Of a stretch of DNA of 64,000 bases, positions 15,393 to 27,532 are shown in pieces. The notes beneath the pieces were generated by a model. It was not told the origin of the DNA and did no database searches. It saw only the letters and a list, made by a program, of their open reading frames with translations. Source of the stretch: an uncultured Acidobacteriaceae bacterium (GTDB lineage: Bacteria > Acidobacteriota > Terriglobia > Terriglobales > Acidobacteriaceae); NCBI GenBank assembly GCA_963850345.1, contig CAWKKW010000007.1:689-64688 (forward strand), written 5' to 3'. The position numbers and the translations under genes are program-made. Within the stretch, counting starts at the first letter, position 1. Each line of letters starts with the position of its first letter.

Positions 15393-16799
15393 TTACAGCA
15401 GGCGCATGAGACCTGTCGCCGGAATATCAGCCGGCAAAAACTTGCGCTCCTCGCCGAATGTGCGGGTAAGAGCCTCGGCTGCAAGATAACCGCTGCGCGC
15501 AGCACTCTCCATCGTCGACGGCCATCCCGTGTTGGTCCAATCTCCCGCAAGGAACACGCCCCGCCACGGGCTCTCCGCATCGGGGCGCAGTTTATCCAAG
15601 CCGGGCAAGACGGAAAACGTAGCGCGCGCTTCCTTCAGAATTCCGCTCTTCACTACACGAGCTTTCTTCACCTCAGGAAAGAACAGCGCAAGCTCCTCAA
15701 TTGCGCCTGAGAGTATCTCCGCCCGCTCCTGCCTCAGCGAGTCTTCTGAGGCCGCAATCACCAACTCAACATAGCTGCCCTGTTCCGGCGCCGCGCCACG
15801 AATCCGCGACTTATGAAAGATCCACTGAATGCGCGTATCGAGCAACGCTGCATGGTGCAGATCGGTAATCTCGCGGTCAAACCAGAGATGCACCGTCGTG
15901 TATGGCGAATGCACAAACTGGGTTAAATTGATGGCGAGTTGATCCGCCTCCGCGTTGCGGGGCATTTTTTGTATCAGCTTCTGTACCTGTTCAAACGGCA
16001 GCGCCAACACTACTGCGTCAGCCACAAATTCGCCCTGGTTCGTAACCAGGCACCAGCGACCGTCAGGATCTCGCGCCAGCGATTCGACACTGGACCGGAG
16101 ATGCACGCTTCCACCCAGCGACTCGATCAGGCTCGCAGCATGGGAGTACAGATCGCTCAACGGAATCGTTGGTATGCCTAGCTTCGCGCCGCCAGGCGAA
16201 CGCAGAAACAGCTCGCGAAATACGTGTGCACAATGACGCGTCGAACACTCTTCGAATCCATCATTCAACGTGCAGACCACCACCGGCTCCCAGAAGTGAC
16301 GGATCGCCCTCTCCGTCTGCCCGGTACGCTTCAGCCACTGCGCAAAGCTCTGAGTGTCATTGGGCGGAATTCCGGTCAGGAACTGTGACATACCTCGAGC
16401 GATCGCAATTTTGTCCCTGAGCCCCAGCATCGGTGCACGCAAAAAGCCTGCGGAAAAGTGCAGCGGAGCCGGCAGTCCGTTCGCCGAAAATTCACTGGCC
16501 CTGCCGTTCGACTCGAGGAACGTGAGCTTGTCGTACCAGCGAATCTTGTCCGACATCCCGGAGCGTTCGTACAACTGCATCAGGCTGGTGCAGCAGCCAA
16601 GCAGAACGTGCTGACAGTCCACCACCTCGCCCAGGGCGGGGTGTTCGTAAGAAGAGGCGCGGCCACCTACGAATGGACGGCGCTCCAGCAATTGCACCTC
16701 GTATCCTGCTTCGGCAAGAGCCGAGGCGGCGGTCAGTCCGGCAACTCCGGCACCGACCACTGCGACCGATCTTTTCTGCTTGATTTCGGAATTCGGCAT
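15393..16799 (-). CDS. hpnE: Hydroxysqualene dehydroxylase (FAD-dependent, phytoene-desaturase-like)
   Basis: FAD fold VAVVGAGVAGLTAASALAEAGYEVQLLERRPFVGGRA. Sits directly after hpnC-hpnD. Confidence 0.9.
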   Translation of the reverse strand: MPNSEIKQKRSVAVVGAGVAGLTAASALAEAGYEVQLLERRPFVGGRASSYEHPALGEVVDCQHVLLGCCTSLMQLYERSGMSDKIRWYDKLTFLESNGRASEFSANGLPAPLHFSAGFLRAPMLGLRDKIAIARGMSQFLTGIPPNDTQSFAQWLKRTGQTERAIRHFWEPVVVCTLNDGFEECSTRHCAHVFRELFLRSPGGAKLGIPTIPLSDLYSHAASLIESLGGSVHLRSSVESLARDPDGRWCLVTNQGEFVADAVVLALPFEQVQKLIQKMPRNAEADQLAINLTQFVHSPYTTVHLWFDREITDLHHAALLDTRIQWIFHKSRIRGAAPEQGSYVELVIAASEDSLRQERAEILSGAIEELALFFPEVKKARVVKSGILKEARATFSVLPGLDKLRPDAESPWRGVFLAGDWTNTGWPSTMESAARSGYLAAEALTRTFGEERKFLPADIPATGLMRLL

Positions 16800-16805
16800 G
16801 CCCGC

Positions 16806-17798
16806 TCAGGCCCCGAGCAATCGATACGCGAAGACGCGCAGTAGGCCCTGTGCGAGGATCCATAGCTTTTCGCTCGAAGGCACCGAGACGCGCGACGAGA
16901 ATACGTCGTAGTCTCGCTGCTCAATCCTTTTCAGCAGCCGCGAATAAATGGTAATCAGCACCCACATCGCCGGACGGCTGTCCCGCGCAATCATCGGCAA
17001 CAGCCGGTAGCCCGATTCGTAATAGCGTCGCGCACGATCCCCTTCCAGCCGCAAGAGGGTCTTCAGCGGACCCGGCACCGTCCCGCGCTGCTCCAGCAGT
17101 TGCTCGGCATTCACTCCTGCCCGCTCCATATCCTCAAGCGGAAGATAGATACGCCCGCGTTCCGCATCCTCTCGCACGTCGCGAAGAATGTTCGTGAGTT
17201 GAAATGCGATGCCCGTCTCTTCCGCCAGTCTCTCCGCCTGCGAATCGTCGTACCCGAAGATGCGGATGCACACCAACCCAACCACCGAGGCCACCAAATA
17301 GCAGTATCGGTACAGGTCGTCGAACGTCGGATACACATCCACCGGCGCGGTCTCGACCGCCGTACCCCCGTTTGCCTGCTCTGCATTTGCTGATCGTCTT
17401 ACCCGCGCGGGCCGTTCCAGGTCCATCGCCGTTCCCTGCACCAATTGATCCAGCAGCTGTGACGGAATCTGGAACCGCCGCTGTGCATCCGCAAGCGCAA
17501 CGAAGACCGCGTTGTTCGTAGCAGCCCCGCTCTCGGCTGCATGCCAGTTCGCCGTCCACGTGCGCAGCGCATGCCGCCGCTGCTCGTGAGGAAGACTCTC
17601 ATCATCGGAGAGGTCGTCGGCGTGTCGCATAAACGCGTACACGGCGCAGATCGCATTGCGCTTCTGACGCGGCAACGCGCGAAATGCATAGTAGAAGTTC
17701 TTGGCTTCTCTGCGCGCGATTTGGCGGCATACCCGGTACGCCTCTTCGATGCGATGCCGCGGGTCGCGTGCGAACGACGGGATCTCGTCCGCGCTCAT
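16806..17798 (-). CDS. hpnD: Presqualene diphosphate synthase
   Basis: Squalene/phytoene synthase Asp-rich motifs MRHADDLSDD and NILRDVREDAERGRIYLP. ATGA overlap with the hpnC stop codon (17795-17798). Confidence 0.9.
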   Translation of the reverse strand: MSADEIPSFARDPRHRIEEAYRVCRQIARREAKNFYYAFRALPRQKRNAICAVYAFMRHADDLSDDESLPHEQRRHALRTWTANWHAAESGAATNNAVFVALADAQRRFQIPSQLLDQLVQGTAMDLERPARVRRSANAEQANGGTAVETAPVDVYPTFDDLYRYCYLVASVVGLVCIRIFGYDDSQAERLAEETGIAFQLTNILRDVREDAERGRIYLPLEDMERAGVNAEQLLEQRGTVPGPLKTLLRLEGDRARRYYESGYRLLPMIARDSRPAMWVLITIYSRLLKRIEQRDYDVFSSRVSVPSSEKLWILAQGLLRVFAYRLLGA

Positions 17799-18751
17799 AC
17801 GGCCGCCCTTCGCCGCGCGGGCAAGAGCTTCGTTGAAAGCGCGCGAATCAGCAGCGCCGCCTTCCGCGATTTCGAAATCGCCGGCCGCGCGCGCAATACG
17901 TCGTAGTTCTGCGACTCGATGGCATGCAGAATCTCGAGACCGCCGCGGCTGAAGAGGTCCAGGTCGAGCGCCAATTCACGATCCACTCTTTGAATGAGTG
18001 GCATACCCTGCTCGAACATGGCTCGCGTGTTCTCCACCTCAAAGCGCATCAGGTCGCGAAAGCTCGACGTCGCCTGCCCCGTCGCAATCACCGACTCCGG
18101 CACGCGGAAGTGGTCCATATCTTCGCGCGGCAGGTAGACTCGGCCGCGTTCGTAATCTTCCCGCACGTCCTGCCAGAAGTTCGCCAGCTGCAAAGCCGAA
18201 CAGGTGAAATCCGAAAGCAGAAAAAGCTCTGGGTCGCGGTATCCGCAGGCATACAACACCAGCCTACCCACCGGGTTTGCCGAATATCGGCAATACGCAA
18301 GCACATCCTGCATCGTATCGAACCGAGTGACCTGCTGATCCTGGCGGAAGGCAACCAGCAGATCGGCGAAAGGCTCCTTCGGAATCTCGCAGATACGTAT
18401 TGTATCCGCCAAGGCGACGAATACCGGGTGGTTCGCTTCTCCCCGATAGCACGCATCCAGTTCCCTGCCCCAGAGGTCGAGCAGCGCCAGCGACTGATCG
18501 CGATCCCCTACTTCGTCGCCCAGGTCATCCGAGATACGGCAGTACGCATAGATGCTGTGAAAGTGCGGACGCAGACGCTTCGGCAGAAACCACGAAGCTA
18601 CGTGAAAATTCTCGTAATGCGATTCCGCCAGCCGCTTGCAGTACGCACGCGCCTCATCCAGCGTCGGAGCAGTCTCCGGGATGCGGTATTCCGCCGGAAG
18701 AGCCGCCCAACCCTTTTCAATGAGTTCCTGGTGTGTGTGCAAAACCGCCAT
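17795..18751 (-). CDS. hpnC: Hydroxysqualene synthase
   Basis: Motifs YCRISDDLGDE and NFWQDVREDYERGRVYLP. Start set at ATG 18751 (GGAG 7 nt upstream); the longer track ORF would overlap the upstream dehydrogenase. Confidence 0.9.
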   Translation of the reverse strand: MAVLHTHQELIEKGWAALPAEYRIPETAPTLDEARAYCKRLAESHYENFHVASWFLPKRLRPHFHSIYAYCRISDDLGDEVGDRDQSLALLDLWGRELDACYRGEANHPVFVALADTIRICEIPKEPFADLLVAFRQDQQVTRFDTMQDVLAYCRYSANPVGRLVLYACGYRDPELFLLSDFTCSALQLANFWQDVREDYERGRVYLPREDMDHFRVPESVIATGQATSSFRDLMRFEVENTRAMFEQGMPLIQRVDRELALDLDLFSRGGLEILHAIESQNYDVLRARPAISKSRKAALLIRALSTKLLPARRRAAV

Positions 18752-18779: not shown

Positions 18780-19829
18780 TTAGGGAATAATCGCTGTCTT
18801 GATGTCGTTCGAGCCATCCATCAACTTGCGCAGAACCTGGTCCAGTTCGAGCAATGGTGCCCGGCCGGTGATGTAGTCACTGCTGTTGAACCGCCCGCTG
18901 GTGACCAGTTCAAAGGCCTTCCGGCAACTCGCCGGCGTGTGATGGAAGCTCGCCTTCAGCGTAATGTCGTTGTAGTGCAAGCGGTTGGTGTCCAGGCTAA
19001 CCTTGGTGCCCACCGCGCAACCGCCGAAGAAATTGACCGTGCCACCGCGGCGCACCATGTCCACGGCCCACTGCCAGGTGATCGGCGTCGCCACCGCTTC
19101 GATCGCCACATCCGCTCCACGCCGTTCCGGAGTCATCGAGCGCACCGCACTTACTACGTCATCGGTGGACGTAATCTGCACGACCTTGTCCGCCCCGAAG
19201 ATCTTCGCCATCTGGACCTGCTCGTCGCGCTTCACGACGGCGATCACGCGCATCCCCTGCAACTGCGCTACGTGAATAAACATCAACCCGATCGGTCCGG
19301 CGCCAATCACGACCACCGTATCGCCGGCCACCGCTCCGGTCTCTTCCAGGCCGCGCACCACGCAGGCCAGCGGCTCGGTAAGAGCGGCATGCTCCAGCGG
19401 CACGCCGTCGGGCACCTGCAAAGTATTCTTCTCAACGATGCGCGCTGGGATCCGGATGTACTCCGCATAGGCGCCGTTGTTGAACAGCAGGTCGGCGCAG
19501 AGGTTCTCCTGCTGCCGCTTGCACCAGAAGCACTTCCCGCAGGGCGCGGAGTTCAACGCCACCACGCGCATGCCCGGCTCGAACGCGGTCACACCCTCGC
19601 CTACCTCGTGCACCACCCCGGCCAGCTCGTGGCCAAAGAGCGCAGGCGGCACCAGCATCTTCGCATGATAGCCCCGGCGGTACACCTTCAAATCCGTGCC
19701 GCATGTCAACGCGGCGCTGATGCGAACCACAATCTCGCCCGGCTCCGGCAGTGGGATCGGCACGCGCTCGATCCGCACGTCTTCTTGCCCGTGGAGCACC
19801 GCCGCGTTCATGTCCGTCGCCATAAGCAT
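18780..19829 (-). CDS. Zn-dependent polyol/alcohol dehydrogenase (MDR, sorbitol/threonine-dehydrogenase-like), copy 2
   Basis: Catalytic Zn ligands in LTCGTD, GHELAG and TEPLAC. Structural Zn cluster CGKCFWCKRQQENLC. Rossmann GAGPIG. Confidence 0.9.
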   Translation of the reverse strand: MLMATDMNAAVLHGQEDVRIERVPIPLPEPGEIVVRISAALTCGTDLKVYRRGYHAKMLVPPALFGHELAGVVHEVGEGVTAFEPGMRVVALNSAPCGKCFWCKRQQENLCADLLFNNGAYAEYIRIPARIVEKNTLQVPDGVPLEHAALTEPLACVVRGLEETGAVAGDTVVVIGAGPIGLMFIHVAQLQGMRVIAVVKRDEQVQMAKIFGADKVVQITSTDDVVSAVRSMTPERRGADVAIEAVATPITWQWAVDMVRRGGTVNFFGGCAVGTKVSLDTNRLHYNDITLKASFHHTPASCRKAFELVTSGRFNSSDYITGRAPLLELDQVLRKLMDGSNDIKTAIIP

Positions 19830-19856
19830 CTTCTATTGTCGCACTTCCGGCGCTTC

Positions 19857-20987
19857 TCAGCCGCCTGCTTCTATGATGATCTTCATGGACTGAGCGCTTG
19901 GATTTGACGCCACTCGAATCGCCTCGACCGCCTCTTCCAACGGAAACCGGTGAGAAACCAGCCGGGTCAGGTCGAATCCCTGCGTATAGCCTTCAAAAAC
20001 CAGCCTGGCCCCTTCATCCTGAATCTGTTCCGAGGCGCTGTAGGAGCCCAGCAGCGATTTTTCGTCCATGCAAACTGCCGCCGGATCAATGGTCGCTTCG
20101 CCATGCTGTGTCTGGGCAAAGAGCAGGATCCTTCCGCCCGGCCGCGCCGCATCCATCGCCGTTTTGATCAGCGAATTGCCGCCAACTGCCAGAATTACCG
20201 CATCCGCTCCTCGACCTTCACTCGCTTGTTTGGTCGTCGCGACCACGTCTTCCCGCGAAGCGTCGATCGGGTGCTCCAACCCAAACGTCGCTGCGATGGC
20301 GTGCCGTTCGGCATACAAATCCGAGGTCAGCACCTTGGCGCCGGACCGCAACGCCAGCGAAGCCAGCAGGATGCCAATCGGACCCTGCCCAATCACCAGC
20401 ACAGTTTCGTCCGCCGCCAGGTTCAGGTTCTGGACCGCCTTCAGGCACGTATTCACCGGCTCCACAAAGGCCGCCTGCTCCAGCGGCACGCCGTCGGGAA
20501 CCTTGACCAGCCCGCGGCGAACGATCCAGTCCATCACCCTTACGTATTCAGCGAAGCCGCCGCCCGCAGGCTCAAACCCCGCCGTCACGCCCACACGCTT
20601 GTACACCTCGCATTGCGCAAAGGTCTTCTTGCGGCAGTAGTAACAGGCGCCGCACGGGATATGGTGAAAGACCATCGCCCGGTCGCCGACCGCAAAGTCG
20701 GTAACCCCGTCCCCTATCGCCACGATCGTGCCTGCTGTCTCGTGTCCAAAGATCCTCGGCGCAGCATGCGAGCCGGTGTGGATCTTCTTCAGGTCCGTAC
20801 CGCAGATGCCGCAGGAGTGAACCCGCAGCAGCACTTCGCCCGGCCCGATCTGCGGCACTGGCACAGTCTCCACCCGCACATCGTTGACGCCGCGGTACAC
20901 CGCCGCCCGCATGGTAGCCGGAATGTCACGGCTGACCAGAGGATGCGGAAGGGTCAGACCTTCGGTACTCGTTGCCATCGCTGTCAT
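19857..20987 (-). CDS. Zn-dependent polyol/alcohol dehydrogenase (MDR, sorbitol/threonine-dehydrogenase-like), copy 1
   Basis: Motifs CGICGTD, GHETAG, VEPVNTC; structural cluster CGACYYCRKKTFAQC; Rossmann GQGPIG. ATG 20987 forms an ATGA overlap with the hpnG stop codon (plus strand tcat at 20984-20987). Confidence 0.9.
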   Translation of the reverse strand: MTAMATSTEGLTLPHPLVSRDIPATMRAAVYRGVNDVRVETVPVPQIGPGEVLLRVHSCGICGTDLKKIHTGSHAAPRIFGHETAGTIVAIGDGVTDFAVGDRAMVFHHIPCGACYYCRKKTFAQCEVYKRVGVTAGFEPAGGGFAEYVRVMDWIVRRGLVKVPDGVPLEQAAFVEPVNTCLKAVQNLNLAADETVLVIGQGPIGILLASLALRSGAKVLTSDLYAERHAIAATFGLEHPIDASREDVVATTKQASEGRGADAVILAVGGNSLIKTAMDAARPGGRILLFAQTQHGEATIDPAAVCMDEKSLLGSYSASEQIQDEGARLVFEGYTQGFDLTRLVSHRFPLEEAVEAIRVASNPSAQSMKIIIEAGG

Positions 20988-21673
20988 TGTGCCGTCTCTA
21001 CCCCCACGTCGTGGCTCACGACCACGCGCAATTCCCGGCAGAGATTTCGCGCCGCTCGCGAACTCACTCTCCCCATCAGCCATGCTCGTCTCCACAGATA
21101 CGGGCGCATCGCGAGATAGACCGCAAATGCTCCCTCACGAAATCCACCCGTCGCGGTTACGAATCTCTCCAGGCCCGGCAATTCGAAATCAAATTCATCT
21201 GAAATCGCTTTGACTGCGGAGAACGGGAGCCCCGCCTGCTCAGCCACCTCCGCGACCGCCGACGCCTCCATATCCACCAGGTCCGCCCCGTACGAACGTG
21301 CCAGCCGCTGCTTTTCCGCTCGATTGGCAAACTGGTTGGTTGTCACCAGCACTCCACCCTTCGAACCCGTATCGTATTTTTCGAAGCTCACTGCATCGAC
21401 CACCCGGCTCGGCCGGCGCACACTTCCACCAGTCAGCCCCGGATTGAGTGCCCCGCACCAACCCGCCGAGATCATCCGATGCAGCGGACCGTGCTTCAAG
21501 GCCTCTTGCGCAGCCAGGCGCGCCCGCACCGTGCCCATACCTGCGCACACCACAACAGCCTTGTCCGACCAGGCAATCAGCATCTCTGCGTTGTTCTCAT
21601 CCGCTCGCCAACCGTGCACCAGCGACGAAACTTCACGCGGCAATGCAGCAACAATTGCGATTCGAGAATTCAT
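20984..21673 (-). CDS. hpnG: Hopanoid-associated phosphorylase/nucleosidase (adenosylhopane nucleosidase)
   Basis: PNP/UDP-1 nucleosidase-like motifs (VVCAGMGTVRA, DMEASAVAEVA). Lies between hpnA and the dehydrogenases. ATGA overlap with the hpnA stop codon (21670-21673). Confidence 0.85.
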   Translation of the reverse strand: MNSRIAIVAALPREVSSLVHGWRADENNAEMLIAWSDKAVVVCAGMGTVRARLAAQEALKHGPLHRMISAGWCGALNPGLTGGSVRRPSRVVDAVSFEKYDTGSKGGVLVTTNQFANRAEKQRLARSYGADLVDMEASAVAEVAEQAGLPFSAVKAISDEFDFELPGLERFVTATGGFREGAFAVYLAMRPYLWRRAWLMGRVSSRAARNLCRELRVVVSHDVGVETAQ

Positions 21674-22695
21674 ACTGTCTGCGTCCCCGTCAGCGCTTCT
21701 GCTTCCATCGGAGCATAGCCATGCTCACGAAACCATTCAATGGCCGCGCGCAGCGCCTGGTACACCGGCACCTGGCGAAAGCCCAGTTCCTGTACCGCCT
21801 TGGCCGATGAAGCGAACATCTTCTTCTTGCCCATACGCACCGCTTCTACCGTCGCCCTCGGCTCTTTGCCGCGCAGCTTGCCCGTCAACGTCTCATCGAA
21901 CAACGCGAAGACCATGGCCACGCTATGCGGTACCTTCCTGCTCGGCGAAGGAAGCCCCGTGATCGCCGACATCTTATCGAGAATCTGCTTGAGCGTGAGA
22001 TTTTCTCCGCCCAGGATGTAACGCTCTCCCGGCCTTCCCAGGTGTAGCGCCTCGGCGTGGGCGCGCGCTACTTCATGCACATCGACCAGGTTCAAGCCCG
22101 TGTCGACGTATGCGGGGAATTTGCGATTGAGAAAGTCGACGATGACGCGGCCAGTCGGCGTCGGCTTCAGGTCGTTCGGTCCAACCGGGGTGGTCGGGTT
22201 TAGAACAATCACCTGCTGGCCTGCGCGAGCTGCGGCAATCGCCTCCTGCTCGGCAAGAAACTTGGATCGCTTGTAGTGACCTATCATATCGGCCAGCGAA
22301 ACGGGCGTGTCTTCATTCACGATGGTTCCGTCTTGCTTGAAGCCCATCGTCGCCACACTCGAGGTGTAGACCACGCGAGGCACACCCTCTTCCCGCGCGA
22401 TGCGCAACAGCTCCCGAGTGCCGATCACGTTCGCCGCATACATCGCTTCCGGATCGCGCACCCACAGCCGGTAATCCGCTGCAACATGCATCACGGCATC
22501 GCAGCCGGAGATGCCGGCACGCAACGACTCGGGAACCTGCAGATCCCCGATGACTGTATCGGCTTTCAACCCGGAGAGATTGTCGAGGCGGCTGGTCTTG
22601 CGCACGAGAACACGAAGGTCAGCGCCCCGGCCGGCCAGTTCCCGAGCCACATGGCTGCCTACGAATCCTGTTGCTCCTGTGAGGAAAACCTTCAT
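21670..22695 (-). CDS. hpnA: Hopanoid-associated NAD-dependent sugar epimerase/reductase (extended SDR)
   Basis: Rossmann motif in VFLTGATGFVGSHV and catalytic YxxxK (YKRSK). Start at the MKVFLTG ATG (22695). Confidence 0.85.
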   Translation of the reverse strand: MKVFLTGATGFVGSHVARELAGRGADLRVLVRKTSRLDNLSGLKADTVIGDLQVPESLRAGISGCDAVMHVAADYRLWVRDPEAMYAANVIGTRELLRIAREEGVPRVVYTSSVATMGFKQDGTIVNEDTPVSLADMIGHYKRSKFLAEQEAIAAARAGQQVIVLNPTTPVGPNDLKPTPTGRVIVDFLNRKFPAYVDTGLNLVDVHEVARAHAEALHLGRPGERYILGGENLTLKQILDKMSAITGLPSPSRKVPHSVAMVFALFDETLTGKLRGKEPRATVEAVRMGKKKMFASSAKAVQELGFRQVPVYQALRAAIEWFREHGYAPMEAEALTGTQTV

Positions 22696-22809
22696 CTGGA
22701 TTGCCGGCCTGCGCCCGCCGGCGCCGATCCACACCGCCCCTGTTCGCAAGTGTTGTAGCGAGTCGCTTGCGATCGAATCCTTGCCGCGACCAGCATACGC
22801 CGATTGCCG

Positions 22810-23238
22810 CTAATCCAGTTTGTCGGGATGCAATCCGATGTTCTTCTCGCCCGCGGCCTTCTTCTGCTCGTATTGCTGAACCCACGCTTCCCAATGCTTG
22901 CCCGCGGCCCGGTCCTTGCCACTGAACTCCAGCCGTGCAATGTCTGCGTAGGTCACAGAAGCCTTCTCAGAGGAGTTCGCCGGATAGAGCCGAATCACCG
23001 AGTCACTTAGTGACTTACCGGTTCGCCGGTCGAAGATATAGCCGTCCATACGGCGACCATCCTTCAACGTGAGCGTGATATCGCCGCGGTAGTCGAATGC
23101 CTTTTCGAGCGCTTCGAAGATCTCCTGCTGACTCGCCATCTCCGGAATCCAGCCTTCCAGGTTTTCATGCTTTGTACCGGGAGCAATCTCCAGCGAATCA
23201 GGATCGGGCGTCGAATACTTGAGGACCTCGGCCGTCAT
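22810..23238 (-). CDS. Hypothetical soluble 142-aa protein, translationally coupled to hpnH
   Basis: ATGA overlap with the hpnH stop codon (23235-23238). Coding-like codon usage. No Cys and no TM segment. No family recognised. Confidence 0.7.
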   Translation of the reverse strand: MTAEVLKYSTPDPDSLEIAPGTKHENLEGWIPEMASQQEIFEALEKAFDYRGDITLTLKDGRRMDGYIFDRRTGKSLSDSVIRLYPANSSEKASVTYADIARLEFSGKDRAAGKHWEAWVQQYEQKKAAGEKNIGLHPDKLD

Positions 23239-24356
23239 GCGTTAGTCTCCTCAAGCTGCTTGGAAGGAGACCCAATCTGCACCAGCGGAGTGTGGCCGTT
23301 CGCGATCGGCTGGTTGAGCAGATCCAGAGCGCCGCGGTCTTGATATTTGCTGAACAGAGACGCCTTGGCCATCGCAACAAACCCCCGCCACGAACCGAAC
23401 CCGTCGTTCACAGCAGAGGCTTCGTAGCCGCAGCTCACCATGCAGTTCGCGCACTTGGGATTGCCGCTCTCCGTGCCGTAGTTATCCCAGTCCGTTTGAT
23501 TGATGAGCTCCTTGAAGCTGTCCGCGTAGCCATCCTGCAACAGATAGCAAGGCTTCTGCCAGCCGAAGATGTTGTACGCCGGCATGCCCCAGGGCGTGCA
23601 CTGATAGTCGCGCTTGCCCATCAGAAATTCAAGGAACAGCGGCGACATGTTGAACTTCCACTCCGGCTTGCGATTGGAAAGAATCGCGCGGAACAGTCTG
23701 CGCGTACGGGCGCGCCCCAGAAAGCGATTCTGGTCCGGAGCCTTGTCGTAGGAATACCCAGGCGACAGCACGATGCCTTCGACGCCCATCGACATCACTT
23801 CATCGAAGAAGTTGCGGACGCTGTTGGGATCGGTTCCGTCGAAGAACGTCGCGTTCGTGGTCACGCGGAAGCCGCGCTTCACCGCCTCGCGAATGCCCTC
23901 GACCGCGATGTCATATCCGCCTTCGCGGCAGACTGAGAAGTCGTGGTGCTCCCGCTCGCCGTCGAGGTGAACGGAAAACGTCAGGTATTTCGAAGGAGTG
24001 AACTCCGGCAGACGCCGCTTCAATTCCAGCGCGTTGGTGCAGAGATAGATGTACTTCTTGCGAGCAACCAGGCCTTCGACAATCTCCACAATCTGCGGAT
24101 GCAGCAGCGGCTCGCCGCCAGGGATGCTCACCATCGGTGCGCCGCACTCTTCGACGGCCTTGAAGCACTCTTCCGGCGTCAACTGCTTCTTCAAAATATG
24201 GGGCGGATACTGCACCTTGCCGCACCCGGCGCACGCCAGGTTGCAACGAAAGAGTGGTTCGAGCATCAGCACCAGCGGATAGCGCTTGACACCACTCCAG
24301 CGCTTCCGGAGTACGTAGCTTGCTACGGTCCACATCTGTGAAATAGGAACTGCCAT
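23235..24356 (-). CDS. hpnH: Adenosylhopane synthase (radical SAM)
   Basis: Radical SAM motif CNLACAGC in LEPLFRCNLACAGCGK. Overall family resemblance and position downstream of shc. Confidence 0.93.
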   Translation of the reverse strand: MAVPISQMWTVASYVLRKRWSGVKRYPLVLMLEPLFRCNLACAGCGKVQYPPHILKKQLTPEECFKAVEECGAPMVSIPGGEPLLHPQIVEIVEGLVARKKYIYLCTNALELKRRLPEFTPSKYLTFSVHLDGEREHHDFSVCREGGYDIAVEGIREAVKRGFRVTTNATFFDGTDPNSVRNFFDEVMSMGVEGIVLSPGYSYDKAPDQNRFLGRARTRRLFRAILSNRKPEWKFNMSPLFLEFLMGKRDYQCTPWGMPAYNIFGWQKPCYLLQDGYADSFKELINQTDWDNYGTESGNPKCANCMVSCGYEASAVNDGFGSWRGFVAMAKASLFSKYQDRGALDLLNQPIANGHTPLVQIGSPSKQLEETNA

Positions 24357-24452: not shown

Positions 24453-26507
24453 CTACACCTCCGCGCCGCGCTCCATCGCTCGCTTATAGGTCGTCAATGC
24501 CAGCAGCGGGAAGTAATTGCGGTACAGATGGTATGCGAGATAAAACACCCGCGGAAATCCTGTACCGGTATACATCGCCTGCCGGGTGACGCCTTCGCCC
24601 GTGCTCTCGTCCCACGAGCCGTCCTTCTTTTGCCGGTTCAACAACCAGCGAATGCCCTTGGCTACCGAATCGCTGCGGGTATCTCCGGCCGACAACAAGC
24701 CCAGCAATGCCCAGGCTGTTTGCGACGGTGTGCTCGCGCCCACTCCGCGGGTCGTCGGGTCGTCATAGCTTCCACAGCTTTCGCCCCATCCGCCGTCGGA
24801 GTTTTGCACCATGCGGATCCACTCCGCCGCCTGCTGAATCTGCGGCTCGTGATTCCACACGCCCATCGCTTCCAGGCCGCGCAATACCAGGAACGTGCCG
24901 TACAAGTAATTGACGCCCCAGCGGCCAAACCAGCTTCCGTCCGGCTCCTGCTCATCAAAGATGAACTGGATCGCCTTTTCGACTCGCTTATCCTTGCGTG
25001 TGTAACCGTAGGTGGCCAGCGTCTCCAGGATCCGTCCCGTGATATCGACCGTCGGCGGATCGAGCATCGCGTTATGGTCGGCAAACGGGATGTACTGGAA
25101 GATCATCTTGGTGTTGTCTTTATCGAAGCTGCCCCAACCGCCATTGCGGCATTGCATGGCGAAGATCCAGTCCAGCGCGCGCTTGGAGACGTCGTACTGG
25201 TACCGCTCGCGCGGGTTATCAACCTTGTTCAACGCCAGCAGCACCTGGCCCGTATCGTCGACGTCAGGATAGAACTCGTTGTTGAACTCAAAGTACCAGC
25301 CGCCCGGCTGCGTGTTGCGAACCTTGACCGCCCAGTCGCCCTTGTGCCGCACTTCCTTCGACAACATCCAGTCCACGGCCTTGAGCATGCGCGGATCGTT
25401 GCGCGGCACTCCCGCCTCGCCCAGCGCGAAGACTGCCTGCGCTGTATCCCATACCGGCGACATGCACGGCTGCATGCGAAACGTCGGCGTGGCGTAGTCC
25501 GCAGTGCCCCGCGGCTCATCGATGCCCAGCTTTTCAAACTCATCCATCGCCCGGATCATCTGCGGGTCGTCCATCGAATAGCCCAGGCAACGCAGCGCGA
25601 CTATGGCGTTGAGCATGGCGGGATAGATTGCCCCCAGCCCATCGCTCATCTCAAAGCGCTCCAGCATCCACTTCTCTGCCTTGTTCAGCGCCAGCTTGCG
25701 CAGCGGCCGTACGTGCACCCGCTCCGCCCAGTGCGCGAGGCGATCGGTGAAGATGAAGAAGTTGCGCCAGCTGACCAGCTTCTTCTTGTCCCAGCGCAGA
25801 TGCAGGTTGGCGTTCGCACGGCCGCCGACGAACAGCTCGTCGATGCCATGCTCCGGCGGAATCTTCTTGAACGGCTTCTTGGCATAGGCGATCGAGAGCG
25901 GCACCAGGATGGCGCGCGACCATGAGGAAATTTCGTAGATGTTGAAGTAGAACCACTTCGGAAACAACACGATCTCCGGCGGAATCGCCGGCACCGCGTC
26001 GTATTCGTATTGTCCCAGCGAACACAGATAGATCTTAGTGAAGGTGTTGCACTCGACCACGCCGCCGTTGGCGAGAATCCACTCCCGCGCTCGCGCCATC
26101 CATGGCTCATCCGCGGTCACGCCCATGAGCTTGCCCGCGAAATAACACTTCACCGACAGGCTGATGTTCGAGGGACCACCCGGATAGATCGACCATCCGC
26201 CATCCGCGTTCTGATACCGAAGAATCTCATTCAGCGCGCGCTCGAGCTTGCCCGTGTCTCCGGTGCCGAGCAGCGTGTGGGCGAAGATGTAATCCGCCTC
26301 CAGCATGCTGTCCGCTTCGAGTTCCCCACACCAGAATCCTTCTGGATGCTGCTGCGAGAGCACATATTCGCGCGACTTGGCGATGGAGGATTCGACTTCG
26401 TCGAGCCCGGCGTCAATGCGGCCGAACTTCGGAGCGACTGGTTGTGCACTTGCGAAAGATGGACTCATTTTGCCGACGACAAACTCACTCTCTGGCAGAG
26501 CCGGCAC
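24453..26507 (-). CDS. shc: Squalene-hopene cyclase
   Basis: Catalytic DVDDT (25251-25265). Multiple QW repeats (QNADGGW, QNSDGGWGE, RQKKDGSW). Collinear with the Alicyclobacillus SHC sequence as I recall it. Start is either GTG 26507 (TAGTG overlap with the ispH stop codon) or ATG 26468. Confidence 0.97.
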   Translation of the reverse strand: MPALPESEFVVGKMSPSFASAQPVAPKFGRIDAGLDEVESSIAKSREYVLSQQHPEGFWCGELEADSMLEADYIFAHTLLGTGDTGKLERALNEILRYQNADGGWSIYPGGPSNISLSVKCYFAGKLMGVTADEPWMARAREWILANGGVVECNTFTKIYLCSLGQYEYDAVPAIPPEIVLFPKWFYFNIYEISSWSRAILVPLSIAYAKKPFKKIPPEHGIDELFVGGRANANLHLRWDKKKLVSWRNFFIFTDRLAHWAERVHVRPLRKLALNKAEKWMLERFEMSDGLGAIYPAMLNAIVALRCLGYSMDDPQMIRAMDEFEKLGIDEPRGTADYATPTFRMQPCMSPVWDTAQAVFALGEAGVPRNDPRMLKAVDWMLSKEVRHKGDWAVKVRNTQPGGWYFEFNNEFYPDVDDTGQVLLALNKVDNPRERYQYDVSKRALDWIFAMQCRNGGWGSFDKDNTKMIFQYIPFADHNAMLDPPTVDITGRILETLATYGYTRKDKRVEKAIQFIFDEQEPDGSWFGRWGVNYLYGTFLVLRGLEAMGVWNHEPQIQQAAEWIRMVQNSDGGWGESCGSYDDPTTRGVGASTPSQTAWALLGLLSAGDTRSDSVAKGIRWLLNRQKKDGSWDESTGEGVTRQAMYTGTGFPRVFYLAYHLYRNYFPLLALTTYKRAMERGAEV

Positions 26508-27532
26508 TAAGCCGACGCCTGGCCGTTTGAAGGAGCAGCAGCAATCGCCTGCACGATCTCAGGGGGCAGGCCAAAGCGCACGTTTTCCGGCATCACTTCT
26601 ACTTCCTCCACATCGCCGAAGCCCTTCTGCTTCAAATACGCCACAACTTCTTCGACCAGCACCTCGGGAGCCGACGCGCCGGCGGTCACGGCAACAGTAC
26701 TTACGCCCTCAAACCAGGCCGGATCGATTGCTTCTGAATTGTCGATCAGGTAGCTGCGTGTGCTCAGATTCTTGGAGACCTCTACCAGCCGATTGGAATT
26801 GGAACTGTTGTTCGAGCCCACTACCAGCACCAGGTCCGCATCATGCGCCACGTTTTTCACCGCGACTTGGCGATTTTCAGTCGCGTAGCAGATGTCCTGC
26901 GAATGCGGCCCGACAATCTTGGGATACTTGATCTTCAATGCCTGAATGATGTCGCGTGCCTCGTCCAGACTCAGGGTCGTCTGCGTCAGATACGCGACGT
27001 GCTCGGGATCGGGCACTTCGAGTGACTGCACCTCGGCCACATTCGAAACGACCTGGGTTACCTCAGGAGCTTCCCCCAGCGTTCCTTCAATCTCGTCGTG
27101 ATCGCGATGGCCGATCAGCACCAGCGAATAGCCCTGCCGCGCAAACTTGACCGCCTCAACGTGCACCTTGGTGACCAGCGGGCAGGTGGCATCGATCACC
27201 TTTAGCTTGCGCTCTTTGCTGCGCTCGCGCACCGCGGGTGAGACACCGTGGGCGCTGTAGATCACCCGCATCCCCGAAGGTACGTCGTCGATGTCATCCA
27301 CAAAGATGGCGCCCTTATCCGCCAACTCGTTCACGACAAAACGGTTATGAACGATTTCTTTGCGCACGTAGATGGGCGCGCCAAAGGTCTCGAGCGCGAT
27401 CTTCACAATATCGATCGCCCGGACTACGCCGGCACAGAATCCACGGGGTTTGAGCAGAAGGATGCGCTTCTCTGCCACGAGAGAGCCGTCCGTTGGCCCT
27501 GCGAGGAATGCTTCGCTTGTGTTGACAGTCAC
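26507..27532 (-). CDS. ispH: 4-hydroxy-3-methylbut-2-enyl diphosphate reductase
   Basis: Motifs GFCAGVVRAI, ATCPLVTKVH and GSNNSSNSNRL (LytB Fe-S ligands and conserved SxN). Confidence 0.93.
   Translation of the reverse strand: MTVNTSEAFLAGPTDGSLVAEKRILLLKPRGFCAGVVRAIDIVKIALETFGAPIYVRKEIVHNRFVVNELADKGAIFVDDIDDVPSGMRVIYSAHGVSPAVRERSKERKLKVIDATCPLVTKVHVEAVKFARQGYSLVLIGHRDHDEIEGTLGEAPEVTQVVSNVAEVQSLEVPDPEHVAYLTQTTLSLDEARDIIQALKIKYPKIVGPHSQDICYATENRQVAVKNVAHDADLVLVVGSNNSSNSNRLVEVSKNLSTRSYLIDNSEAIDPAWFEGVSTVAVTAGASAPEVLVEEVVAYLKQKGFGDVEEVEVMPENVRFGLPPEIVQAIAAAPSNGQASA

Follow-up and report, generated by a model that had tools for sequence, protein, structure and literature searches.

Introduction

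The genes considered here are already in the literature: Sinninghe Damsté et al. (2017; Front Microbiol 8:968, PMC5462960) listed them as ug1, a "Zn-dependent alcohol dehydrogenase ca. 370 aa" that follows hpnA-hpnG, and ug2, a "Zn-binding alcohol dehydrogenase ca. 350 aa" that precedes hpnC-hpnD-hpnE, with functions "not established." According to that work every subdivision 1 or 3 acidobacterium has ug2 and Chloracidobacterium does not, and it was HpnA, not ug1 or ug2, that was proposed for the conversion of ribosylhopane to bacteriohopanetetrol (BHT). We analyzed a 64,000-nt stretch of an uncultured Acidobacteriaceae bacterium (contig CAWKKW010000007.1, positions 689 to 64,688; hereafter the window), in which two minus-strand genes at 19857–20987 and 18780–19829 are ug1 and ug2, matching the description both in size and in placement between hpnA-hpnG and hpnC-hpnD-hpnE. 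An earlier note on the window had proposed these two genes as candidates for the ribosylhopane-to-BHT reductase.

That note held that no gene had been assigned to this step, which is still so: the reviews of 2025–2026 leave it without an enzyme, a Natural Product Reports review of August 2026 draws it as non-enzymatic, and our literature search returned no paper tying the ug1/ug2 dehydrogenases to it. The 2017 paper put ug1 and ug2 in two separate clusters (PMC5462960), whereas here they are one pair, and it does not contain their obligate pairing, the split between NAD- and NADP-type cofactor sites, their occurrence outside Acidobacteriota or the presence of the pair in subdivision 6 (SD6). 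Relative to the literature searched, the pairing, the cofactor split, the finding of a ug1-ug2-hpnCDE operon in more than one phylum and the evidence that speaks against specificity for the hopanoid side chain appear to be new.

L-Threonine 3-dehydrogenase (PDB 2D8A, 2DFV, 3GFB, 2DQ4) is the best curated-family and PDB match of both proteins and has in common with them the Cys-His-Glu catalytic zinc, the four-Cys structural zinc and a CGTDL motif. Unlike that enzyme, ug1 and ug2 have no kbl partner gene, they score far below the equivalog cut-offs, and in ug2 the acidic residue for NAD binding is absent. Sorbitol dehydrogenase and the NADP(H) ketose reductase (1PL6, 1E3J) belong to the same polyol-dehydrogenase branch and have its Glu-Pro motif, and the cofactor site of 1E3J aligns with that of ug2, but both are remote matches (PDB E-values of 1e-29 to 1e-40) and mammalian sorbitol dehydrogenase is without the structural zinc. 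Pairings of an NADPH-dependent reductase with an NAD+-dependent dehydrogenase are known from fungal xylose reductase/xylitol dehydrogenase and from IolW/IolG inositol epimerization. In these systems the NADPH reduction and NAD+ oxidation act serially on one polyol/carbonyl pair and drive it one way, and ug1 and ug2 may work in a like manner, although the xylose reductase and IolW/IolG pairs come from other protein families (aldo-keto reductases and GFO/IDH/MocA).

The other orphan NAD(P) oxidoreductase of hpn clusters is HpnA (TIGR03466), whose gene lies 5' of the hpnC operon here, as it also does in Zymomonas. HpnA is an extended short-chain dehydrogenase/reductase (SDR) that is widespread in Proteobacteria, whereas ug1 and ug2 are medium-chain dehydrogenases/reductases (MDRs). 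According to the literature HpnA, which had been put forward for the same reduction, is not required for BHT in Burkholderia cenocepacia and does not occur in Rhodopseudomonas.

Results and Discussion

Two Distinct Dehydrogenases of the Polyol/Threonine Branch

The open reading frames (ORFs), Pfam domains and NCBIfam neighbors confirm the earlier report of two zinc-dependent MDR dehydrogenases between hpnG and hpnC. The reported length of 349 aa holds for ug2, while ug1, given as 377 aa, comes to 376 aa from its ATG start (an extension to a GTG at 21095 is possible). The ADH_N and ADH_zinc_N domains were matched at 92 and 68 bits by ug1 and at 89 and 87 bits by ug2, all above the Pfam gathering scores. 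All of the motifs that had been quoted are present, namely the catalytic zinc motifs (CGICGTD/GHETAG in ug1, LTCGTD/GHELAG in ug2), the four-Cys structural zinc sites CGACYYCRKKTFAQC and CGKCFWCKRQQENLC, and the Rossmann GxGxxG motifs (GQGPIG/GAGPIG), and they are kept in >150 orthologs. The zinc ligands are conserved across the lineages examined; degenerate relatives such as P0127 and P0134 are without some of the cysteines. In the polyol/threonine dehydrogenase branch of the MDRs a Glu-Pro motif replaces the third Cys ligand of classical alcohol dehydrogenases, and both proteins carry this motif in conserved form (FVEPVNT in ug1, LTEPLAC in ug2).

Beyond the branch, neither protein reached the cut-off of the curated families that it matched best. 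The best families in NCBIfam were L-threonine 3-dehydrogenase, IolM and galactitol-1-phosphate dehydrogenase, at 105–166 bits against equivalog cut-offs of 380–550. The L-threonine 3-dehydrogenase equivalogs TIGR00692 and NF003808 gave 157–166 bits and thus missed their cut-offs of 380 and 458, and the models for IolM, galactitol-1-phosphate 5-dehydrogenase and L-idonate 5-dehydrogenase gave 105–157 bits where 450–550 are required. A sequence search of the PDB returned archaeal threonine dehydrogenases, a Thermus alcohol dehydrogenase and two uncharacterized zinc dehydrogenases as best relatives, followed by the NADP ketose reductase and sorbitol, xylitol and galactitol-1-phosphate dehydrogenases (E-values of 1e-29 to 1e-41). 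The fold is settled, since the PDB sequence matches reach E-values of 1e-37 to 1e-41. The source label "L-iditol 2-dehydrogenase" is an automatic name only.

The two genes had also been described as tandem paralogs. Both are indeed MDRs, but ug1 and ug2 share 34% identity and generic MDRs are as close to ug1 as ug2 is; we therefore consider them members of two distinct uncharacterized MDR subfamilies and rejected a recent tandem duplication. In a search covering 1.84 billion representatives, the ug1 subfamily comprised about a dozen 50%-identity clusters at 40–71% identity, after which the matches fell to a plateau of generic MDRs at 33–38%.

The cofactor sites of the two proteins differ. At the position that we take to be diagnostic, that of Asp203 of human sorbitol dehydrogenase, ug1 has the acidic NAD-type residue Asp223 (codon 20321–20319), and the alignment has Asp or Glu here in all 11 of the ug1 lineages defined below. 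In ug2 the corresponding site is Val199-Lys200-Arg201 (19235–19227), which in the alignment falls on Ala199-Arg200 of 1E3J, an NADP ketose reductase, and is hence of NADP type. The site reads Val-Lys-Arg/His in Terriglobales and Gly-Arg/Lys/Asn-Arg in the deep lineages, SD6, Armatimonadota and L172. The pair would thus combine an enzyme of putative NAD preference with one of putative NADP preference. A transhydrogenating polyol cycle, passing reductant from NADH to NADPH, was considered and rejected by us on thermodynamic grounds.

Gene Order in Terriglobales

The hopanoid cluster of the window consists of 11 tightly packed minus-strand genes (27532–15393, from the ORF list of the window) in the order ispH, shc, hpnH, a 142-aa ORF, hpnA, an hpnG-like gene, ug1, ug2, hpnC, hpnD and hpnE. 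The spacing described in the earlier note is exact: the ATG of ug1 (20987–20985) overlaps the TGA of hpnG (20986–20984) as ATGA at 20984–20987, 27 nt separate ug1 from ug2, and 28 nt separate ug2 from the hpnC ATG at 18751. The start of hpnC is ambiguous, an ORF from 18817 overlapping the 3' end of ug2 by 38 nt; in Pseudacidobacterium ailaaui hpnC overlaps ug2 by 4 nt. A consensus scan of 14.5–28.5 kb found no promoter- or terminator-like sites above chance and no obvious operon break.

Close relatives were scanned with one genome per GTDB species; the 80 best matches listed are Terriglobales loci at 65–83% identity, and adjacency was counted by tblastn with the window proteins over the loci with enough sequence. 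Among these listed loci ug2 adjoins ug1 in 77 of 78, hpnC adjoins ug2 in all 76, and hpnG directly precedes ug1 in at least 68 of 76. The only break between ug1 and ug2 is an insertion of ~3 kb in an Acidisarcina metagenome-assembled genome (MAG; L008, 11065–14147). Median identities to the window proteins were 71% for ug1, 66% for ug2, 71% for HpnC, 81% for HpnH and 37% for HpnG. These counts, together with the recurrence of the arrangement in deep lineages, support the claim that ug1 and ug2 are genuine, conserved operon members.

The frequency with which hpnG directly precedes ug1, and the ATGA overlap of the two genes in the window, are among the grounds for the proposal that BHT is formed from the open-chain aldehyde form of ribosylhopane through reduction by ug1 and/or ug2 (the NADP-type ug2 being the more plausible), with ug1 as a second redox step on the side chain or as a heteromer partner. 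The proposal, which we regard as unlikely, would fill a step that has no assigned enzyme, and several further observations agree with it. The cell-free reduction of ribosylhopane, as Bodlenner and colleagues are said to have found in 2015, depends on NADPH, and the ug2 site is predicted from alignment to be of NADP type. BHT has a ribitol-like C5 polyol as its side chain, both subfamilies have relatives that touch C5 polyols or ketoses (the Rhodococcus operon and the P0152 fusion described below), and in one distant locus, L091, hpnH adjoins the pair.

The split clusters point the other way. In three of the listed genomes and several metagenome contigs, the hpnG-hpnA-shc-ispH block is inverted and lies several kb off, and ug1-ug2-hpnCDE stays whole with ug1 as its first gene beside a divergent recN-like ORF, so that the pair follows hpnCDE, not hpnG. 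The inverted and separated block was seen at L131 (5600–10000) and also in L066, L074, L077, L122, L138 and L170, no hpnH match was found in these loci, and the recN-like ORF in the intervening DNA of L131 is 581 aa in length. In Pseudacidobacterium ailaaui an hpnA-hpnG-ug1-ug2-hpnCDE block stands without shc or hpnH and has the same ug1/ug2 architecture.

The Pair and the hpnCDE Operon in Distant Lineages

Distant contexts were gathered from the representative search, two further homolog searches, contig look-ups and a metagenome scan, and the resulting 171 ug1-like genes were clustered at 60% identity into 11 lineages. A ug2-type gene lies directly 3' of the ug1-like gene in 10 of these lineages, often with a 4-nt overlap (the partner in L176 was called by tblastn assignment). 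The partner genes of the deep lineages have 43–57% identity to ug2 vs. ~30% to ug1, and the spacing between the two genes ranges from a 4-nt overlap to a gap of 27 nt in most loci and reaches 80 nt in L086.

In six of the nine lineages with enough sequence, hpnC or hpnD follows on the same strand within 1.5 kb 3' of the pair. In the Terriglobia cluster this is the case for 118 of 119 loci; the L107 group has the order ispH-hpnA-ug1-ug2-hpnD-shc; and in L143 and L113 hpnC/hpnD likewise follow the pair within 1.5 kb. In L091, a contig of 39% G+C, ug1, ug2 and hpnC are coupled by overlaps, with hpnD 16 nt further on and hpnH in convergent orientation. In an Armatimonadota MAG, L174, the order is threonine aldolase-ug1-ug2-hpnC-hpnD-hpnE-trpA. 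HpnC and HpnE of L174, L091 and L113 score above the NCBIfam cut-offs. The pair heads an hpnC-hpnD(-hpnE) operon without hpnG in L174 of Armatimonadota and in L113 and L091, and only in Terriglobia and their close relatives does it adjoin hpnG. The linkage to hpn genes that the earlier note had suggested looking for in related genomes is thus borne out, but a specific tie to hpnG is not supported, given the split clusters and these three operons.

The threonine aldolase of L174 (8946–9977) and L175 (Armatimonadota MAG GCA_028871815.1) is of the low-specificity L-threonine type (334 bits in NCBIfam, above cut-off). It lies directly 5' of ug1, with trpA 3' of the operon, and is an odd neighbor for threonine-dehydrogenase-like enzymes.

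In a neighbor-joining tree, all of the paired lineages except the marine pair are grouped in a core ug1 clade (bootstrap support, 99%), and the hpnCDE-linked lineages are spread through this clade. Armatimonadota form an early branch and SD6 is nested among hpnCDE-linked lineages, with weak internal nodes. The sister clade holds cyanobacteria, the marine pair and a nucleotidyltransferase (NTP-transferase) fusion. The cyanobacteria (L087, L088 and others) have a single ug1-like gene, annotated "sorbitol dehydrogenase," at 42–43% identity and in variable contexts; among filamentous and unicellular forms it is 81–100% identical to the query P0140. Since the gene is single, has neither a ug2 partner nor hpn neighbors and belongs to the sister clade, we rejected it as an ortholog. 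The fusion protein P0152 (602 aa), a match of the representative search, joins an N-terminal nucleotidyltransferase (PF00483/PF12804) to a ug1-like MDR at 37–39% identity and recalls CDP-alditol systems of the TarI/TarJ type. It was rejected as a fusion to HpnG, and it therefore lends no Rosetta-stone support to a link with hpnG.

That hpnC, hpnD and hpnE are the tightest and most widespread neighbors of the pair raises the possibility that its substrate is a lipid alcohol of the squalene stage; the allylic secondary alcohol hydroxysqualene, for instance, might be oxidized and re-reduced ahead of HpnE, as a stereo-correction or salvage. Hydroxysqualene is the only free alcohol known in the HpnCDE route, and SD6 bacteria keep both HpnCDE and the pair. 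We nevertheless consider such a role very unlikely: it is weakened because the relatives of both subfamilies are soluble polyol, ketose or threonine enzymes and because HpnCDE reportedly suffices for squalene formation in Escherichia coli.

Hopanoid-Free Carriers and Catabolic Relatives

SD6 Acidobacteria are described in the literature as having hpnCDE, as lacking shc and the other bacteriohopanepolyol genes and as containing squalene but no hopanoids. The ug1-ug2 pair is kept in these bacteria (contigs L083-L086). A column-by-column comparison found no residue position that separates hpn-linked from unlinked pairs, the nearest being one conservative Leu-to-Ile/Val change in ug1 and none in ug2, and there is therefore no sign of a change in function. 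On L083-L086 a genuine QueF (preQ1 synthase), usually a proline dehydrogenase, and a WYL regulator precede ug1-ug2, and in three of the four SD6 loci nucleoside catabolism genes (nucleoside phosphorylases, a cytidine deaminase and a NupC-type transporter) lie 3–8 kb from the pair.

The SD6 carriers bear directly on the BHT step. A dedicated reductase would be expected only where HpnH and HpnG supply its substrate, but the pair persists without diagnostic changes in SD6, which has no shc, hpnH or hpnG, and it is linked to hpnCDE in L091, L113 and L174 without hpnG. Conversely, Chloracidobacterium and 48 alphaproteobacteria, all BHT producers, lack genes of this kind both within and around their hpn clusters, and no BHT-step candidates were reported near the clusters of the latter.

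The chemistry is a further difficulty. Polyol- and threonine-dehydrogenase-type MDRs normally act on secondary carbinols or ketones, such as those at C2, and not on the C1 aldehyde of an aldose. We conclude that ug1 and ug2 are weak candidates for the BHT reductase because the pair stays with hpnCDE and occurs in hopanoid-free relatives, and the proposal of the earlier note is not specifically supported. Equally improbable, in our estimation, is a broader version in which ug2 would make BHT with NADPH in Terriglobia, ug1 would oxidize the C-34 carbinol with NAD+ to give keto or epimeric BHT, and the copies in hopanoid-free bacteria would use a free ribose-derived analog, e.g., 5-deoxyribose.

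The nearest annotated relative of ug2, at 48% identity and with an NAD-type site, is encoded on plasmid pLPS8 of Rhodococcus opacus (NZ_CP093381.1; L177, 9001–10709). It lies in an operon of a DeoR regulator, the dehydrogenase and a class II aldolase whose best match is ribulose-1-phosphate or fuculose-phosphate aldolase, alongside a divergent FGGY pentulose-type kinase and a major facilitator superfamily transporter. This operon looks like an uncharacterized soluble polyol catabolic pathway.

It speaks for the explanation that ug1 and ug2 are enzymes of ordinary soluble catabolism (of pentitols, tetritols or threonine-type substrates) that are co-transcribed with hpn genes and have no functional tie to them. 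Also in keeping with this explanation, the best family matches are Tdh, IolM and GatD, all below cut-off, a threonine aldolase lies 5' of the pair in Armatimonadota, and the pair occurs by itself in SD6, L176 and the marine contigs. We judge it unlikely, however, because the gene order with hpnC/D is kept at 40–50% identity and across phyla, which is rare for unrelated genes. The hpn-linked loci also have no kinase, transporter or aldolase genes with the pair, and the NADP-type site of ug2 argues for an anabolic, reductive role.

A Putative Redox Relay Associated with HpnCDE

The reading that we tentatively favor, and which we hold as plausible though somewhat short of probable, is that ug1 and ug2 form a conserved NAD+/NADPH redox relay of polyol type that has been selected for expression with HpnC, HpnD and HpnE and whose substrate is not exclusive to hopanoid producers. 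The two genes, which are very often translationally coupled, would be an ancient unit whose products work together, relaying hydride in two steps within a single alcohol/carbonyl substrate family: a secondary carbinol would be oxidized in an NAD+-driven step and a carbonyl reduced in an NADPH-driven one. The net effect would be to push a polyol-like substrate one way, as in an epimerization or an aldose-to-alditol-to-ketose conversion. The unit would be a selected accessory of the hpnC-hpnD-hpnE (squalene) operon, and its position 3' of hpnG in Terriglobales may be a secondary juxtaposition. The data themselves establish the pairing, the signatures of active site and cofactor binding, and the synteny. 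We infer the joint action from the pairing and the cofactor signatures; the directions of the steps and any link to squalene or hopanoids are likewise proposals. Supporting the accessory role are the same-strand adjacency to hpnC/hpnD across the deep lineages and the fact that ug1 and ug2 are conserved in Terriglobales to a degree similar to that of HpnC.

Several points weigh against this reading. We know of no orphan redox step in the HpnCDE route. The cofactor preferences are read from sequence, and ug2 of L091 has a Glu of NAD type, the only lineage in which this occurs. The pair has no adjoining hpn gene in four SD6/Vicinamibacteria contigs, in the marine lineage L089 and in L176. The deep branches of the neighbor-joining tree are poorly supported, and part of the cross-phylum synteny could reflect transfer of the whole operon. 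In addition, well-studied organisms with HpnCDE lack the pair, as does Chloracidobacterium, and HpnC, HpnD and HpnE are reported to give squalene in E. coli on their own.

The Other Genes of the Cluster

The remaining genes of the window cluster, all on the minus strand, were assigned as follows. The first, ispH (26507–27532), matched NF002189 at 456 bits, above cut-off. The 684-aa ORF at 24453–26507 was assigned as shc, squalene-hopene cyclase, by position and by tblastn, with 64–84% identity to the gene that related loci carry between ispH and hpnH. The radical SAM adenosylhopane synthase gene hpnH (23235–24356) scored 539 bits with TIGR03470, above cut-off. Overlapping its stop codon is the 142-aa ORF (22810–23238), named ug3 by Sinninghe Damsté et al. 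(2017; PMC5462960); it has no Pfam or NCBIfam family match and is kept directly 3' of hpnH in 41 of the 80 listed Terriglobales loci, at 48–74% identity. The extended SDR gene hpnA (21670–22749; likely true start at 22695) matched TIGR03466 at 489 bits, above cut-off.

The hpnG-like gene (20984–21673) encodes a nucleosidase/phosphorylase with a PNP_UDP_1 domain, for which TIGR03468 was the best match at 91 bits, below its cut-off of 187. No other gene of the cluster evolves nearly as fast: the median identity of the hpnG-like gene among Terriglobales is 37%, against 66–81% for its neighbors. Downstream of the pair, hpnC (17795–18751; alternative start at 18817) scored 353 bits with TIGR03464 and hpnE (15393–16799) 440 bits with TIGR03467, both above cut-off, and hpnD (16806–17798) had TIGR03465 as its best match at 260 bits against a cut-off of 279.

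Implications

Bacteriohopanepolyols are major geochemical biomarkers and the conversion of ribosylhopane to BHT is the last core step of their synthesis without a gene, so any conserved oxidoreductase of an hpn operon is worth testing. Earlier lipid work relied on Rohmer degradation, by which the detail of the side chain is lost. The obvious acidobacterial candidates prove to be less side-chain-specific than would appear at first sight; they are cheap to test against this long-standing gap, and the comparative evidence makes a BHT-positive outcome unlikely. What the analysis brings out instead is a two-dehydrogenase module that, in at least two phyla, accompanies the bacterial route to squalene by three enzymes. 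If the module has no effect on squalene or hopanoid output or structure, the pair would be a long-conserved and functionally unrelated operon passenger; if it has such an effect, the HpnCDE route, and the biomarker interpretations that rest on it, would need an extra component.

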